Shown piece after piece: positions 1-6,000 of a stretch of 9,804 bases of DNA. Source of the stretch: a virus. Taxonomy: Duplodnaviria; Heunggongvirae; Uroviricota; Caudoviricetes. A program made the position numbers. The stretch is from IMG/VR virus record IMGVR_UViG_2531839446_000025, positions 1-9,804 of that record. The stretch is one strand, 5' to 3'. Each line of letters opens with the position of its first letter. Positions within the stretch are counted from its first letter, which is position 1.

Positions 1-3000
1 TTACAATGCTACTTTGCTCCAACCTTTCCTTCGGTCATCATGGTAACGATCGGTTTGCTGCTGGGTTTTATGGCCCAGTAACTTTCTGGTATCAATCCCT
101 TGTTCCTTGTAAAGACGCTCAGATAAAGATCTTTGTTCATGAAAAGTTGCTGGAGTTCCAGTACCCCAATCAATTTCTGCCAGATCACGTGCCTTGCTAA
201 AGTTCATCGTTAGTGTATTAGCTTTTACCTGTGCGCCACGTTCAGCCTGTGATGTAGTACGGAAAAAATGCACTAAGTATGGGCTGACTGCGTAGTCACG
301 GCAGCGAGCTACTACATCACGTAAACACCAGTTGATAGCATTCAAACGTAAAGAAAGAGGGATAGCGATTTTGCTCCCGGTCTTTTCCTGAATGACGTGA
401 AGATGATCCTCCCAAATATCACTAAATTTCATTTTGGATATATCTCCTAAACGCTGCCCAGTGACCAAAGCTAGGAGCATGGCATTTCCCATATAACGAT
501 GAGCGGCGTCTGCGATATCGAATATTTTTTTCCATTCTTCTAGGCTGAGGCGTTGACGGCTAATTTTCCTTCTGGGTTGCTTCGTTGCAAGAGCAGGGTT
601 ATACCCTGGTGGAACTTCGCCGTAATGCTGTGCTTCCTTAAACACATCGATCAATACAGACCTTACGACCTGGGCCATTCTAGGCTGTCCAGCAGAGATA
701 TACTCATCAAGTAATTGTGCTATATCTCTGACATCAACGGCTGATATCAACTTCAGTCCTGCTCGTTCCCTGAGCAAGGATACTGGTTTGGCTTTCTGTT
801 TATAGGTGTTGAGCTTTATATCGCCACTTTTCAGTCTGTCTTCCTGGATTGCTTGATAGCGATCTAACCAGGTTGACGTTGTGATTGCTTTTCCTTTGCT
901 GGTTGCGATCCTGTCACTGATAGCCAGAATCTGCCGGGTTCTTTGCTCAGCCAGGCGTGAATTTGCCTCAGTGGCAATAGCAATGGCTTCAGCTTCGTTT
1001 GTGCCTAAAGAATGAAACTTCCCGGTCACTGGATGTTTATATCGCCAATAGACTTTATTTACTTTTCTACTATAAAGCGGATACAAGTTCGGGACTGAAA
1101 CATTATTTTTACGTGGTCTGGCTGCCATTACTTAAAATCCTTTGTAGAATAATAGAATCATTTTTCTTGATGACAGGAGTAACTAATTCCCCAACTAACT
1201 CTGCGTCCTCACGCACTCGCCATAGTCGACCTTGTTTCATTGCCGGTGGACAAAATAAATTCTGCTTAGCATAACGACGCAATGTGGACACGCTTGGAGG
1301 ATTACTTCTGTATTTTTCCGCAGCCCATTCCTCAAGTGTCAGCATTTGAAGCATTTTTGATAACCTCATTTCTTTTGCTACAAAACTATTTCACTAGTTA
1401 ATTTCGCTGTCTGGATTGTTTATGCATCTTATGCAGCTCTTTAAAACGTTCCATAAACATCCCGTAGGCATGGCTAGGTGCCAGTGGAATCACGTTGAAC
1501 ATCTCTGTTGCCGGGATGCCTTCCAGTACAGGCCAGAAAGAGCCATCATCAAGCCCGAGATCGCGGCGTTCGGTTGCCAGCATGATAAGATCGGCATATT
1601 TCACGGGCGTACTCATAACTGGGGGTAACCCGTATTTCTCACGGATTACGGCGTCAATTTTTTCTTCCATCCGTTTATAGTCAGGCAGAAGGCGTTTCAG
1701 TGGAGCGGGAATATCCTGGCAATACGCTTCTGTTGCATCATGCATTAACGCTTCAAAAGCAAATTCCTGCGGCACCAGCTGGCTGCAAAGCACCGCATGT
1801 TGGGCGACACTGTAGAAGTGAGAAAGATGACCGGCAAAGCGGCAGATATTTGAAAGGGAAACCGCGATATCGTTAATCACGATGTCGTCTTTATTTATCT
1901 TGTCATAATAAAAATGCTTCCCGGAAAAAGTTTTAATAAATGACATTTTGTTCTCCACGTATATGCGCTGCACCGCGCTGAGTTTGGGTAAAAGGAAGCC
2001 CTCACCATCCGGTGATTATTGAGTTAATTACGTTTCCATAAATGCCCCCGCAGGGGCATTTGCAGTAATGAAATCAGGCGGTGAAAGTACCAATAAAGGT
2101 TTCTACTTTGCTGTCTTTGAATTTTTCAACAAGCAGATCACGAAATTCGTTAGCCATTTCTTCCTGCACTGCTTCCAGCTGAATAATGCGCAGAACCAGT
2201 ACAGGGCGATCACCAGTGATAATGCTGAGGCGTAATTTAAACGGACGTTCTTTCAGGCCTTCAAACGGAACGCATTTAAACTCAAATGCTACTGGCATAA
2301 TGTCTTTGGTTTTCGCTTCGACAGACTCCATCAGAGAGCGTTTGCCGCTGAAGTCATTGTCTTCAAAATCAGCGGTCTGGTTTGCTTCAATCGTGATTTT
2401 ACGGACCGCCGCAGCCGCTTTTGTTGCCTGAATGGCGTCACCATTAGCATCAAAGCCCACAAGGTAGTCGGCCCAGTCTTCAATCCATTCTGCCAGTGAC
2501 TTCTGGGAGTTACGCTCGCCGTTAACAGACAACAGGGCAGAGAACGGTGCTGTCTTTTTCAGTTTGAGAGTGGCGGTGTTATCTGCGTGACCTGGTTCAT
2601 CAATAGTACCCAGGTTAAGCACACTGACGGCACGCATATTATCAGCATCGATAAAGCAGCGGGTGCCTTCATCTGCAAGATCTTTAGAATAACGGGTAAA
2701 ATCATCGATGCTGGCAGTGGAAAGCGCGCCACGGAAACGGAAGCGATTTAAATTAAATTTTTCCAGATCATGAATGCGGAAATTCTCAGGCAATGCCACA
2801 GCATCGGCACCAATCTTACTGATAATTTCATTAACACCCTGAGCAGAAATAAGGGCATGGATTTGATTAATTGCGGTTGCGTCTAAGTTCTGAGACATAA
2901 TAAGTCCTCACTATATAAAGATATTCAGTGATGAGATAAATAATCAGTTAATTAAGAACGATATTAATGACCTGCTGCGCGTAGTTTTCCGTCAGGTTCA

Positions 3001-6000
3001 CCGGCAAGAGTCAGTAATTGTCCCTGGTCTTCCTGCAGAACAGTCAGGCGACCACCGCGATTGACATACATCGGCGTTTCGGTGGTGTCTTCTTCGGAAA
3101 TTTTCCCGCGGTTAGTCGGGCGAACATATGAGAGTTTGTGTTTGATTTTCACACGGTTCTCATCAAATGGTTCGATTTCCAGGTTGAGTGAGACCTTACC
3201 TTTGGTTTTCGTGTTCATCACACCGGAAGCGACTTCACTGAGAACTGCGCCGATTTTGGTTTCAAATACGCCGCCGTCCAGCTCCCCGATAAATGCCTGC
3301 ACATCAGTACTGCGTTCGCTAGCCATTTTGCTGTTCCTCATCATATCGACCCTGCAAGGTCGGTTGGTTTCTCCACAAAACAGAGAAGAACACCTGCGGT
3401 GGCAGCCGCCCGGATGGATTGGGTTATGAGCCCGTCGTCCGGTGATGCTCTTCTCTGTTTTGTAAAAAGAGCGGTACCAGCCGGAAGCAAGTGTACAAAC
3501 TGGTACCGCCAAAGCAGTGGCTGTTGTGGTGGGGTTGTCACTCAGGCGTATGGTCAACCTGACAATCCGGTGTCCTCAACGGGGAAAGAGTAACCCCGCC
3601 ATACTTACCGCCGCGCCATTTCGCGGATTACCACAACGCTGAGAGCACTTAGCCAGTTACGGCACCACACTTTGTCGCGGCTCCATAAATGCCCTCATCG
3701 TTGCACCCTGGTCTCTTCCCAGGCGTCAAACCGAATCGCCACGCTGGTTAGGCGTCTTATCAGCATCATCATTGACTTGCACATTCCGGCTACCTGGTTT
3801 GTTTGCCCGAGCAAGGAGTGGATTGTCCCCTTTAACGTCCCCAGACCGCTAACGACGCATGTGCCATACGCCGTGTTACAACCAAATTTTGTTAGTACCT
3901 TGTTTGTTTGTCTGGAAAGAAAGATAAAATGAAGTTGCGCATTATGCAAGTGTTTTTGTTGCGAGATATGCAATTTAAAGGGTAATGAAAAGCCACCTTT
4001 GGGTGGCTAATTGATGAGGAGGTAAGGGTTAATTGTGTCGCTTAAGGGTTTGTGACTGGCTGATTAAGACCTTTCCAAAGACCATAAACCGGTGTTCATT
4101 TTCGCTGGTAATTCCCCATTCACGGTAAATCTGGTTATCAGAAATCACCAGTAGTTTGTCAGGTATCATTTGCAGTCGTTTGACATAAATTTTATCATCA
4201 AAACCAAATACATAGATACCATCTCCATCAAACTGATTGATACTGACATCAACGAAGATGAGATCTCCTGGCTCAATGGTTGGACACATACTGTCCCCAC
4301 GAACGTTGATAACTTTAATGTGATTGGCTGGCCGTCCGCCAAACATCGATACAGCATTATCAGTTCTGTATTCAATGGCATGAATCACATCAATGACATC
4401 ACCGCCCTGGATAAGGCCATTTCCCGCACTGGCACTGACATCCAGCATTTCAATACGGAATACATCCTTCACCTGCGCAACATCCTCACTAATACTGTTT
4501 TTACATACAGTATTACTTTTGACGTCTGAGGTAAAGAGATCAGCAATATCAACACCTAAGCTCCTGGCAATATTACTCAGGGCTTGTTCAGTGAATTGTT
4601 TCTGCTTACCTGTTTCCAGGCGTGAGATATTCGCCGCATCCACTCCTATTGCTTCAGCGAGATCGGCGATTTTCATGTTCTTCGCCTGGCGAAGTTGTCT
4701 GACTCGGTTTCCTATGTTCATGCGTTTATTACATTTCTTTATTGCGCGTTAAGCAAATCAACTTGCGCAAAATATTTGCGTGAAATAATATGCTCATCAC
4801 GCAATATGTGGAGGTCATATGCAATCACCATTACGGAATGTGCGTAAGGCGCACGGATTTACTTTGCAGCATGTTGCTGCTGGCGTTCAGGTCAATCCAG
4901 CGACGCTGAGTCGTATTGAAAGACTGGAACAAATTCCATCTATCGATCTTGCAGAACGTCTGGCCAATTTTTTTAAGGGTGAAATCAGCGAAATGCAGAT
5001 TCTTTATCCGGCACGTTTTCAATCTAGCCAAAACCAGAATGGGTTTAAACCACAGGAACAGGAGGTAAGCCGTGGGTAATCATCACTGGAAAGTGGAAAA
5101 ACAGCCTGAGTGGTACGTGAAAGCTGTCAGAAAAACTATCGCGGCGTTGCCGGGGGGTTACGCTGAAGCTGCTGAGTGGCTGGATGTAACAGAGAACGCA
5201 TTATTTAACCGCCTTCGTGCCGATGGCGATCAGATTTTCCCGCTGGGATGGGCAATGATTTTACAACGTGCTGGTGGCACTCACTTCATTGCTGACGCTG
5301 TGGCGCAGTCTGCAAATGGCGTCTTTGTGTCTCTTCCTGACGTCGAGGATGTGGACAATGCCGATATTAACCAGCGTTTACTGGAAGTCATTGAACAGAT
5401 CGGCAGTTATTCAAAACAGATTCGTTCGGCAATCGAAGACGGTGTAGTGGAACCGCATGAGAAGACAGCAATTAACGACGAGCTGTACCTCTCAATTTCG
5501 AAGCTGCAGGAGCATGCAGCACTTGTCTACAAAATTTTTTGCGTTTCAGAAAGTAATGACGCCCGCGAGTGTGCAGCTCCGGGCGTCGTGGCGTCGATTG
5601 CTTCTGGTTGTGGAGAAACTAACGCATGAACAGTTTAACAACACACTACCGTCGCTCGCAACTGATTGCGCTTCCTGTACCGGGTGGAAAAGCGAAGGTG
5701 GAGTATTGCTATGCAGTAAATGTACCAGGTGACAGGGAAATTGTAACCCACAGCTTTGCTGAGTGGGCTGTGGGTGATTTCAACCGGCAGAAGGAGACAG
5801 TCCTTTGCGACAAGTTAACCGCTGGTTCAAAGATCACTACGGAGTGCCCGTCAGAGTCATTCGTTGGGAGCCGGAAACACAACGGGTTATCTACCTCCGC
5901 GAAGGCTATGAGCATGAGTGCTTCAGCCCGCTCGAACAGTTTCGTCGTAAATTCAGGGAAATAGAGGTCGGTCATGAGCACTAAATTAACCGGCTATGTA

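Follow-up and report, generated by a model that had tools for sequence, protein, structure and literature searches.

The yfdPQR cluster of a lambdoid prophage: a conserved yfdP-yfdQ pair and a facultative yfdR behind a structured leader RNA

Genes and leader of the leftward region

The features discussed here (Table 1) lie in the window, by which we mean the whole 9,804-nt stretch of viral DNA that was analyzed. The initial annotation had placed three co-oriented genes at 1398-3326, in the slot where lambda carries its recombination, kil and cIII genes, and the ORF map gave three minus-strand ORFs with exactly these limits. The yfdR ORF mechanically reaches a GTG at 1973, and an in-frame extension of the yfdP ORF to 3557 is not conserved and overlaps a structured RNA. 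Every gene from the trio to the integrase is co-oriented, with yfdR followed directly by the xis and int genes and the integrase being the last gene of the leftward unit, while cro-like and CII-like genes lie on the repressor side of the trio. Family profile searches between xis and the repressor gene found no match to exo, bet, gam, kil, cIII or any SSAP family, in agreement with the annotated lack of recognizable Rec, kil and cIII genes in this slot. In the 96%-identical prophage L001, which is located next to icd, RefSeq gives identical names to all three genes and annotates intE beside icd. The phage replicon encodes an initiator-like wHTH protein that matches HTH_36 and, weakly, DnaD_N and RP-C, and its gene contains 15-nt tandem repeats; the window gave no match to any helicase or helicase-loader family.

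Table 1. Features of the leftward region and their coordinates in the window
Feature	Coordinates	Strand	Description
Lambda-type (e14 intE-like) integrase	1..1128	-	Pfam Arm-DNA-bind_1 6e-37, Phage_integrase 2e-16
Excisionase	1109..1369	-	Pfam Exc 6e-12; xisE in RefSeq-annotated prophage L001; downstream of yfdR
yfdR	1398..1946	-	182 aa from ATG; HD-domain YfbR-like 5'-deoxynucleotidase (by homology)
yfdQ	2074..2898	-	274 aa; DUF2303 protein
yfdP	2964..3326	-	120 aa; partner of yfdQ
Conserved structured RNA, 5' leader of yfdP	3345..3474	-	Covariation, folding, covariance model
Terminator-like hairpin and T-run	3462..3509	-	Inverted repeat I7; 13-bp stem, MFE fold
oL, two 16-nt operator-like repeats	3934..3973	.	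Direct-repeat family D1; overlap probable pL
cI-like repressor (HTH and S24 peptidase)	4029..4721	-	Pfam Peptidase_S24 6e-19, HTH_3

The leader RNA consists of a basal stem of ~22 bp that opens into a junction bearing one hairpin with an invariant loop and one variable hairpin, and a small hairpin follows the junction before the SD. Its nucleotide identity across genera is 70-93%. RNAalifold predicted 40 pairs, and 97.5% of the corresponding alignment cells are paired; 12 pairs vary on both sides, compared with 4.7 in shuffled alignments (0/500) and no more than 7 in the slid controls. The folding z-score was -6.2 and a covariance model (CM R1) scored 122.5 bits in the window, while Rfam gave no match for this RNA. 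In lambda, the RNase III-sensitive hairpin of the N leader is a long stem-loop lying just 5' of the RBS of the first pL gene. The RNA described here may be comparable in that it is also a long stem-loop preceding the RBS of what would be the first pL gene, but it differs in its three-way junction and invariant loop.

The terminator-like hairpin (GCGGTACCAG / CTGGTACCGC) lies immediately 5' of the leader RNA, and other loci have comparable GC-rich hairpins followed by T-runs, their sequences differing (alignment A5). We infer that this hairpin acts as a terminator. Copies of repeat family D1 (GTTGCGCATTATGCAA at 3934-3949, with a second copy at 3958-3973) probably overlap the leftward promoter pL, and a third copy is found at 4741-4756, in the cI-cro intergenic region. 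The putative pL (TTGCAT-17 nt-TATCTT, minus strand) was read by eye from the sequence and was not listed by a simple promoter scan. A terminator scan placed the intrinsic terminator of the cI-like gene at 3991-4008. Judged from these sequence signals, the promoter, the terminator and the operon structure would together control a leftward operon in the order pL/oL, leader (terminator-like hairpin and structured RNA), yfdP, yfdQ, yfdR, xis and int. The trio would thus comprise the first three genes of a repressor-controlled leftward early operon.

Because they would lie behind an operator-bearing pL and a terminator, yfdP, yfdQ and yfdR look like early lytic rather than lysogen-expressed genes. 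Neither superinfection exclusion nor defence, as the earlier hotspot argument would suggest, finds support here. Such a reading could appeal to the position of the trio near the integrase end of the prophage, where defence cargo is often located, and to the HD domain, which is present in several defence effectors. However, PADLOC gave no match for any of the three proteins, even at E up to 1, the promoter scan found no promoter-like site belonging to the yfdPQR genes themselves downstream of the operator-flanked pL and terminator-like hairpin, and the yfdP-yfdQ pair is also carried by Xanthomonas and Xylella phages that are described as virulent, where a lysogen-protecting role would be senseless. 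A lysogen-expressed defence or superinfection-exclusion system is, in our view, very improbable.

Protein families, linkage and the RdgC alternative

The YfdP-, YfdQ- and YfdR-like identities initially assigned to the three proteins held up: they are 98.3, 99.3 and 96.0% identical, respectively, to the proteins of E. coli K-12 MG1655 (CPS-53), of which they are the orthologues. YfdQ matches Pfam DUF2303 (PF10065) over its full length (E 2e-92) as well as phrog_210 (3e-120), and YfdP matches phrog_204 (8e-50). Relatives of YfdP carry the precomputed Pfam family PF27127, which the Pfam search did not report for YfdP of the window. YfdR matches phrog_318 ("deoxyribonucleoside 5' monophosphate phosphatase", 2e-109), the Pfam YfbR-like family (E 3e-5, with 24.2 bits falling just under the 25.9-bit cut-off) and PDB 2gz4 (Atu1052; E 9e-14), with the HD dyad aligned. 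There are 617 clusters at 90% identity for YfdQ and 182 for YfdP, and 1833 clusters of YfdQ at 50% identity, the best 150 of which are all near 270 aa except for a few truncated entries. Given this wide conservation, the three ORFs are real genes and not chance ORFs.

A fold search with a DUF2303 structure prediction, as the initial annotation had proposed, gave no meaningful match for the YfdQ AF2 model (pLDDT 77) in the fold libraries (cut-off April 2026; PDB 9o7m was not among the entries). The YfdP model, which comprises a long helix, a three-stranded sheet and a conserved disordered acidic tail, had no fold match in the libraries searched. The RFRFRG motif of YfdQ is conserved and some of its Arg residues are invariant, and in both proteins the invariant motifs fall in segments that are disordered in the AF2 models, as expected for interfaces. 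A DUF2303 homologue has been deposited as PDB 9o7m ("YfdQ Protein"); it aligns with YfdQ of the window over residues 16-273 (E 1e-44) at about 40% identity, and the deposition contains 36 chains. Its source is a CP2-like phage of Xanthomonas (98.8% identical to MET23-P3) in which a YfdP homologue precedes yfdQ, as in the window. The PDB contains no YfdP partner sequence, and a literature search found no paper describing 9o7m.

We found yfdP directly upstream of yfdQ in 79/79 species loci, and the same order occurs in Stx, Vibrio, Xanthomonas, Halomonas, Acinetobacter and Thalassomonas phages. The yfdR gene adjoins the pair in 52/77 species loci and is absent beside it in the Stx, Vibrio, Xanthomonas, Halomonas and Thalassomonas phages examined. 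Pairwise distances of P and Q are correlated with r = 0.85 (0.76 on the R-containing subset), compared with 0.58 for Q and R. P and Q thus always travel together, but the three genes do not move as a single unit, R following the pair in only part of the loci. We conclude that yfdP and yfdQ form an obligate, co-evolving pair reaching far beyond lambdoid phages, that yfdR is its facultative partner, and that the trio is a composite cluster of these two units.

Behind the same leader RNA, P-Q was found in 69 contigs and RdgC in 14, never both. A YfdR-like HD gene is present in 87/96 contigs, with P-Q, with RdgC or alone; the RdgC contigs (Pfam E 1e-115) have RdgC followed by the HD gene in 11 cases and RdgC alone in 3. 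In a scan of 165 P-Q loci (80 from IMG/VR, 80 species-level, 4 reference and the window), RdgC was never found less than 4 kb from the pair. RdgC, a recombination-associated DNA-binding protein (PF04381) that many phages carry in their early regions (355 phage records), replaces P-Q in sister phages, in the slot between the leader RNA and the YfdR-like HD gene. RdgC is a single protein of about 305 aa and P-Q a pair of proteins, and they share no sequence or fold similarity. On the basis of position, we hypothesize that RdgC and P-Q are functionally equivalent. The replacement is circumstantial, as variable slots also gather unrelated cargo. In the sister contig L207, a near-identical leader is joined straight to xis-int, without P, Q or R, and the module is therefore dispensable for that backbone.

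Possible roles of the cluster

In unrelated phages, P-Q lies inside or beside groups of Erf or RecT, YqaJ or other exonuclease, and SSB genes. One rival reading is that YfdP-YfdQ is an unrecognized recombination module, such as a new SSAP with an accessory factor, replacing exo/bet/gam in phages that lack a Rec module. The slot is the one in which lambda carries its Red genes, exonuclease and SSB genes adjoin the pair in small Vibrio and Thalassomonas phages, YfdQ forms a large assembly (36 chains), like SSAP rings and filaments, it has the RFRFRG motif and invariant Arg residues, and a yfdQ deletion is sensitive to MMS. The trio has, however, been argued not to be a hidden recombination module (Genome Res 2025; PMC12315714), and we regard this role as improbable.

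Alternatively, YfdP-YfdQ, with or without YfdR, may be counter-defence cargo that neutralizes a host immune system instead of acting on replication. Such cargo might, for instance, inhibit a nuclease, or bind or mimic a nucleic-acid or nucleotide signal. The genes appear to be early-expressed in a variable accessory slot, YfdP and YfdQ are both acidic (predicted pI 5.7 and 5.0), and the pair lies 1-2 genes from Tad2-like and Acb3-like anti-defence genes in Vibrio phage 34E29.1 and Thalassomonas phage BA3. Anti-defence sponges are often large homo-oligomers, as the 36 deposited chains of the YfdQ homologue might suggest, and an HD phosphohydrolase could degrade a signalling nucleotide. Against this, none of the Pfam matches shows homology to a known anti-defence family, Erf/RecT, exonuclease and SSB genes recur beside the pair, and its unusually wide distribution, with uniform size and gene order, is more in keeping with a core accessory of DNA metabolism than with arms-race cargo. 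Counter-defence seems to us rather unlikely.

YfdR is the only member of the trio with a tested activity: the K-12 protein binds DnaA (PMC4776307). The report of YfdR-DnaA binding and initiation inhibition that the initial annotation mentioned is real; Noguchi and Katayama (2016; PMC4776307) showed that YfdR binds DnaA domain I in a Phe46-dependent manner and competes with DiaA and DnaB, moderately inhibiting DiaA-DnaA and DnaB-DnaA binding. Multicopy yfdQ and yfdR together with yfdS or yfdT inhibited initiation in vivo and in vitro, yfdP being dispensable for this phenotype, and neither YfdR nor DnaA was bound strongly by YfdQ, YfdS or YfdT. No replication phenotype followed from deleting yfdQRST, and the authors themselves allowed for an overexpression artefact, while proposing a phage-benefit logic akin to that of lambda P (PMC4776307). 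The initiation phenotype stands for the multicopy yfd genes, but it needs yfdS or yfdT, and tblastn found neither in the window. Binding to DnaA domain I should transfer to YfdR of the window, judging by sequence identity.

One could also suppose that YfdR is a dNMP phosphatase reshaping nucleotide pools in lytic growth, with DnaA binding being incidental and P-Q unrelated cargo. YfdR belongs to the YfbR-like HD family with its HD dyad kept, RefSeq and PHROGs label it a 5'-deoxynucleotidase, no other gene behind the leader RNA is as constant as the HD gene, and Q co-evolves less closely with R than with P. Nevertheless, YfdR-DnaA binding has been demonstrated and is direct and specific (PMC4776307), and we give this possibility little credence.

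Most likely the cluster is a module of early lytic genes that targets host replication or recombination, and not a defence system. Building on the established gene identities, linkage pattern and K-12 YfdR biochemistry, we propose that the prophage is an e14/ST64B/LLS-type lambdoid without a Rec module, which would carry the yfdPQR orthologues in their native setting. YfdP and YfdQ most likely form one complex built on a large YfdQ oligomer, as suggested by the 36 chains of 9o7m, and this complex may act on intermediates of DNA replication or recombination. Such a DNA-metabolism niche, which RdgC would share, is suggested by the Erf or RecT, exonuclease and SSB neighbours of P-Q in unrelated phages and by the alternation with RdgC behind the leader RNA. 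YfdR is a homologue of HD-domain 5'-deoxynucleotidases and should bind DnaA at Phe46 like its 96%-identical K-12 orthologue. Upon induction or infection, the three proteins would be the first leftward products; they would probably dampen host oriC initiation and probably modulate host recombination or repair, favouring the phage replicon. We put the probability of this explanation as a whole, with a P-Q complex and YfdR as repressor-controlled early genes benefiting the phage, at about 0.45. Host manipulation acting on replication, as first suggested, is still the best available reading. Counted against the explanation are the acidity of YfdP and YfdQ, the minimal inhibitory set, which includes one of the missing genes, yfdS or yfdT, the dispensability of yfdP, the low affinities and the lack of a deletion phenotype in the K-12 work (PMC4776307), and the L207 backbone that does without the module.

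Comparison with known systems

[quoted passage not shown] In the LLS functional type, an HD phosphatase, yfdQ and yfdP lie in the early left operon, as in the window, and these phages lack exo, SSAP, Gam and SSB, a description that the prophage of the window fits; YfdQ of phiNP is 58.8% identical to YfdQ of the window. That study handles the trio as one cluster, whereas here it is split into an obligate P-Q pair, a facultative R and an alternative RdgC. The presence of the trio at this slot was therefore already known, and these three observations are new, as is the result that neither the YfdP nor the YfdQ model resembles a known fold.

In CPS-53 (KpLE1) of E. coli K-12, yfdP-yfdQ-yfdR-yfdS-yfdT contains the trio in the same order and orientation. 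The window differs in lacking yfdS (DUF551) and yfdT, and the published phenotype needs one of these two genes. CPS-53 has, unlike the window, lost the repressor, pL and leader RNA, the loss of the latter being indicated by the RNA model having no match in K-12-type loci.

Other initiation blockers that target DnaA include lambda P (domain III), B. subtilis SirA and E. coli Dps and DiaA (domain I) (PMC4776307). The target of YfdR is the Phe46 patch of DnaA domain I that is common to DiaA and DnaB. As an HD phosphohydrolase homologue, YfdR is unrelated in sequence to lambda P, SirA, Dps and DiaA, and its effect is moderate and seen only on overexpression with partner genes (PMC4776307).

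The yfdPQR cluster and its place in the prophage

Within a lambdoid prophage, the window takes in the left arm together with the immunity region. We confirmed that the three co-oriented genes reported there by the initial annotation are yfdP, yfdQ and yfdR, whose products are 98.3, 99.3 and 96.0% identical, respectively, to their counterparts in prophage CPS-53 of E. coli K-12 MG1655. YfdP was recognized by its profile match together with its place directly upstream of a DUF2303 gene, from which it is separated by 66 nt, and YfdQ by a full-length match to the DUF2303/YfdQ family profile. 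The best complete E. coli genomes align across 89% of the window at 96–97% identity, and in one of them the prophage adjoins icd and the RefSeq gene names are yfdR, yfdQ and yfdP. As far as the window itself is concerned, the three are ordinary K-12 alleles and are well annotated.

Features of the window and their coordinates
Feature	Coordinates	Strand	Remarks
Lambda-type integrase	1-1128	-	
Excisionase	1109-1369	-	Directly after yfdR
yfdR	1398-1946	-	phrog_318 match 2e-109
yfdQ	2074-2898	-	PF10065 (DUF2303) E 2e-92, residues 7-272 of 274
yfdP	2964-3326	-	phrog_204 match 8e-50; homologues carry PF27127
Conserved structured RNA	3345-3474	-	yfdP 5′ leader; directly after terminator-like hairpin
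Terminator-like hairpin and T-run	3462-3509		~150 nt before yfdP, downstream of inferred pL
Conserved patches	3707-3794, 3838-3874		Up to 97% conserved in Kosakonia, Phytobacter and Citrobacter prophages
Stretch without credible ORF	Between repressor and yfdP		~700 bp
Inferred leftward promoter pL	~3930-3975		
Operator-like repeats	3934-3949, 3958-3973, 4741-4756		Probable oL and oR
cI-like HTH/S24 repressor	4029-4721	-	Intrinsic terminator 3991-4008
Imperfect inverted repeat, 32 nt	4740-4806		cI-cro region
Rightward of repressor			cro-like, CII-like, DUF4222, initiator-like wHTH, then PerC-like, LexA-DBD, RusA and KilA-N genes
Initiator-like wHTH gene	5974-6915		
15-nt tandem repeat	6283-6346		Inside initiator-like wHTH gene
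KilA-N-domain gene	8138-8830		

Also in agreement with the initial annotation, Pfam and PHROG scans between xis and the repressor detected no member of the exo, SSAP (bet), Gam, Kil or CIII families. About one-fifth of enterobacterial lambdoid phages lack a recognisable recombination module (PMC12315714), and many lambdoid phages of this kind carry the yfdPQR trio in its stead. The trio as a gene cluster is thus already known and well annotated (PMC12315714), and it is not a newly noticed candidate. What we add to the known cluster is the grouping of YfdP and YfdQ (P-Q) as a unit separate from YfdR, a leader RNA, and an alternation of P-Q with RdgC.

Elsewhere in the window, the tandem repeat within the wHTH gene consists of 4.3 copies of a 15-nt unit, TCTGACCCGTCAAAA, coding for a DPSKSDASKS repeat in the protein. 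By analogy with lambda O, these copies are probably origin iterons, and they account for a spurious sub-threshold Rfam miRNA match at 6275-6349. All best-matching E. coli prophages cease to align at position 8770, within the KilA-N-domain gene; the last ~1 kb (8770-9804), in which the ORFs tested gave no Pfam match, represents either a mosaic junction or other cargo. A single Chi site was present vs. 0.33 expected, in a window that is short for such a count.

The promoter region and the yfdP leader RNA

A 16-nt near-palindromic operator-like repeat, GTTGCGCATTATGCAA, occurs in three copies: one between cI and cro, the other two on the left side of cI. These are probably oL and oR, and from their positions we infer that the leftward promoter pL overlaps the two copies left of cI. 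In the leader that precedes yfdP, a basal stem of ~22 bp leads to a three-way junction, where one hairpin has an invariant loop (GGCUCAUAACCCAAUCC) and the second is variable. The mRNA-sense strand of the leader could be identified because it forms many G-U pairs. Across genera the leader retains 70–93% nucleotide identity, whereas YfdP and YfdQ of the same loci are just 57–70% identical. RNAalifold predicted 40 pairs, and in an independent MAFFT alignment 97.5% of the cells pair; in 12 pairs both sides have changed in a compensatory manner, where shuffles gave 4.7 (0/500) and slid controls no more than 7. The window copy has a folding z-score of -6.2. When the whole window was scanned against Rfam with E up to 1, no family matched across the leader, and a scan of 3300-3980 gave only two chance-level matches, both to the opposite strand (E 1.3 and 5.7). 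The invariant loop (CUCAUAA) was also considered as tRNA-like, a reading rejected because ARAGORN found no tRNA or tmRNA. A covariance model located the leader immediately before yfdP in 46 of 80 species-level loci, including Yersinia, Serratia, Rahnella, Providencia and Proteus loci outside the set from which the model was built; the model did not find it in K-12-type loci or in non-enterobacterial phages.

Judged from sequence, this layout is suggestive of early lytic expression of yfdPQR-xis-int, controlled by the repressor and by termination or processing, and not of expression in the lysogen. A superinfection-exclusion or defence role, to which the hotspot argument of the initial annotation would point, is unsupported: the genes look early lytic, and none of the three proteins matched PADLOC-DB 2.0 at E up to 1. 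We rejected the trio as a defence system on these zero matches, and defence of the lysogen is a weaker explanation of its role.

Lambda encodes N at the position that corresponds to 3510-3935 of the window. Here, ~420 nt with a GC content of 0.55 separate the inferred pL from the terminator-like hairpin, and they contain two patches that are conserved in prophages of other genera. No convincing ORF for an N-like antiterminator or another small protein was found between pL and yfdP, and the predicted folding of the region does not exceed that of shuffled sequences (z = -1.3). Nut- or put-like antitermination signals could lie here.

Linkage, structure and genomic context of YfdP and YfdQ

The expectation that the three genes travel together held for P-Q and failed for YfdR. 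We scanned 80 loci, each fetched from the representative genome of one species (a few species gave more than one locus), with P and Q profiles and YfdR. YfdP was immediately upstream of YfdQ in all 79 loci that had upstream sequence, while the next gene downstream was YfdR in 52 of 77. The same order is found in Stx phage VT2phi_272 and Vibrio phages 34E29.1 and 1F273_PE002 (hhalign probability 99–100% in these three), as well as in Xanthomonas phages Tabio and MET23-P3, Halomonas phage H4907, Thalassomonas phage BA3 and Acinetobacter phage Mystique; among those scanned downstream (Stx, Vibrio 34E29.1, Xanthomonas, Halomonas and Thalassomonas), no HD gene follows P-Q. Pairwise distances of P and Q are correlated with r = 0.85 (0.76 in the R-carrying subset), and those of Q and R with r = 0.58. 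On the basis of these linkage counts and correlations, P-Q is one unit, and YfdR is a partner that often accompanies it, mainly in Enterobacterales, but can be separated from it.

YfdQ relatives form 1833 clusters at 50% identity, which places P-Q among the larger phage protein families of unassigned function, spread over phages of gamma-proteobacteria. Nearly all of the best 150 of the 1833 representatives are ~250–300 aa long, apart from a few truncated entries, and neither these nor the relatives of a distant Acinetobacter homologue include a domain fusion. Fifteen diverse YfdQ homologues likewise showed no second family in permissive Pfam scans. The few P+Q "fusions", E. coli entries of ~96–99% identity, are probably frameshift artefacts. 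A search of IMG/VR for YfdQ relatives returned exclusively copies 99–100% identical and so added no diversity.

Structure prediction of the DUF2303 protein, suggested in the initial annotation, yielded an AF2 model (pLDDT 77) with an N-terminal helix and alpha/beta subdomains, in which the invariant acidic loop 172-194 is disordered. The accompanying fold search, in libraries that exclude PDB 9o7m, gave no Rad52, RecA or Gp2.5 fold. YfdP was modeled (pLDDT 71) as one long helix and a three-stranded sheet, with its conserved SEEDTTETPMYVNRGG...QEDQGQL tail disordered. Across distant YfdQ homologues T61, H104 (PGH motif), E140 (followed by a near-invariant D141), R166, S188 and R237 are invariant, and R56 and R223 nearly so; this pattern would suit a binding site as well as a catalytic one. 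In PDB 9o7m, entitled "YfdQ Protein", a YfdQ homologue from a Xanthomonas CP2-like phage, 98.8% identical to the MET23-P3 protein, is present as 36 identical chains. Our literature search for a paper on it gave nothing relevant. The entry is probably a recombinant homo-oligomer. Neither the YfdP homologue nor the downstream homologue of the sister phage Tabio is present in the PDB, and an origin of 9o7m from a virion reconstruction was rejected, as the PDB matches of the closest phage's capsid protein are all capsids of other phages.

The 36 chains of 9o7m and the genome position of P-Q first raised the suspicion of a hidden Rec function, with the pair acting as an SSAP. However, the pair shows none of the Rad52, RecA or Gp2.5 folds, and a hidden recombination function of the trio was judged unlikely in PMC12315714, where phage ArgO145 was found to carry the trio together with a complete Rec module. 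By sequence and fold, the trio lies outside the Red-beta/RecT/Erf/Sak (Rad52-like), Sak4/UvsX (RecA-like) and Gp2.5-like SSAPs, lambda Exo/YqaJ and Gam, so that the possibility that these proteins belong to known recombination families, which would have spoken against the initial reading, was not borne out. Gene context bears on the same question. In VT2phi_272 the order is Gam-RecT-Exo-SSB-P-Q; in Vibrio phage 34E29.1 it is Erf, YqaJ-domain exonuclease, DnaQ-like exonuclease, P, Q and SSB, with a similar order in BA3; and in the Xanthomonas phages P and Q are followed farther downstream by Erf, YqaJ exonuclease and SSB. That four phage lineages have P-Q alongside Erf or RecT, an exonuclease and SSB argues against a replacement SSAP, and we rejected a hidden SSAP or Rec function as the main reading and retain it as a weaker one. 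The context of these unrelated phages does place P-Q in a DNA-metabolism neighbourhood.

Two marine phages have anti-defence genes a few genes downstream of P-Q, namely a Tad2-like (anti-Thoeris) domain gene at 6712-7221 of the fetched Vibrio phage 34E29.1 locus (L003) and an Acb3-like (CBASS inhibitor) gene at 6594-6932 of the BA3 locus (L168). Given their proximity, P-Q may have a role in counter-defence, which we consider a weaker explanation than one in replication and recombination.

YfdR and the alternation of YfdP-YfdQ with RdgC

YfdR has the HD fold and the His...His-Asp...Asp metal-binding motif of YfbR-like 5′-deoxynucleotidases, and its HD dyad (LMHDATE, residues 66–72) aligns with that of PDB 2gz4 (E 9e-14). 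Its score against the Pfam YfbR-like family is slightly below the cut-off (24.2 vs. 25.9 bits) and that against the NCBIfam YfbR equivalog far below (19.8 vs. 122), and it is therefore a YfdR-type relative and not a YfbR equivalog. The phrog_318 label that it matches is that of a phage HD "deoxyribonucleoside 5′ monophosphate phosphatase". A dNMP phosphatase activity was reported, with a nucleotide affinity much below that of YfbR (Zimmerman 2008, as cited in PMC4776307); a role in editing nucleotide pools is a weaker explanation of the module.

The initial annotation had connected the module to inhibition of chromosomal initiation. For K-12 it was shown that YfdR binds domain I of DnaA (Phe46) directly, in competition with DiaA and DnaB, and that yfd genes in multicopy inhibit initiation (PMC4776307). 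From its 96% identity to the K-12 protein, the window YfdR, which differs in its C-terminal ~6 residues, would be expected to bind DnaA too. The minimal set for inhibition is yfdQ and yfdR with either yfdS or yfdT, yfdP being dispensable (PMC4776307). K-12 YfdS and YfdT have no tblastn match in the window, which therefore does not carry the set shown to act. In the same study, YfdQ, YfdS and YfdT did not bind YfdR or DnaA strongly, no replication phenotype resulted from deletion, and the authors allowed for an overexpression artefact.

Taken together, we favor, at slightly less than even odds (roughly 0.45), an early lytic accessory module composed of YfdR and an obligate YfdP-YfdQ unit. YfdR would act early in the lytic cycle as an HD protein through DnaA binding, and YfdP-YfdQ would operate as an obligate unit in the sphere of replication and recombination. 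A more elaborate version seems to us rather unlikely: P-Q, as a large YfdQ oligomer with the small YfdP, would be a hitherto unrecognised two-protein DNA-metabolism factor functionally interchangeable with RdgC and would, with the DnaA-binding HD phosphohydrolase, reprogram host replication and recombination at lytic onset, its expression gated by a new class of structured leader RNA that acts in cis and is common to a large group of enterobacterial lambdoid prophages. A functional P-Q unit, its alternation with RdgC and a DnaA-interacting HD partner make a vague trio testable, the hypotheses being a complex of P and Q, their interaction with DNA or the RecA pathway, complementation by RdgC, and a shift of host ori/ter upon induction; if confirmed, they would show how temperate phages without a Rec module manage host replication and recombination.

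Of the incidental findings, the leader RNA and the P-Q/RdgC alternation are most worth following up. A search of IMG/VR with the invariant leader core yielded 96 contigs that extend for 2 kb or more downstream. The leader was followed by P-Q and HD in 67 of these, by P-Q only in 2, by RdgC and HD in 11, by RdgC only in 3, by HD only (often then a DUF551/YfdS-like gene) in 9, and by none of them in 4. The YfdR-like HD gene is thus the most constant cargo (87/96). In one contig (L207, IMGVR_UViG_2675903413_000006; ~3130-3511), a leader near-identical to that of the window, including the GACCTTGCAGGGTC hairpin, is joined straight to xis-int without the trio, which indicates that the trio is a dispensable cassette with its boundary just past the small hairpin. 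Since the leader also precedes RdgC, HD-only cargo and xis-int, it is part of the phage pL-operon backbone and not of yfdPQR.

RdgC occupies the yfdP-yfdQ position at L175:3251-4168, L199:7017-7961 and L211:4430-5383 (fetched contigs) and in their sister contigs, with Pfam E-values down to 1e-115, and the trio has no homology to it (PF04381). P-Q and RdgC did not occur together in any of the 96 leader-RNA contigs, none of the 165 scanned P-Q loci had an RdgC gene at a distance of 4 kb or less from P-Q, and there was no overlap between the phage records listed, 55 of 184 carrying YfdQ and 60 of 355 carrying RdgC. This circumstantial evidence points to P-Q and RdgC as mutually exclusive partners at the same position and provides the most specific lead to the role of P-Q, as RdgC, which takes its slot in prophages sharing the leader RNA, is a recombination-associated DNA-binding protein.
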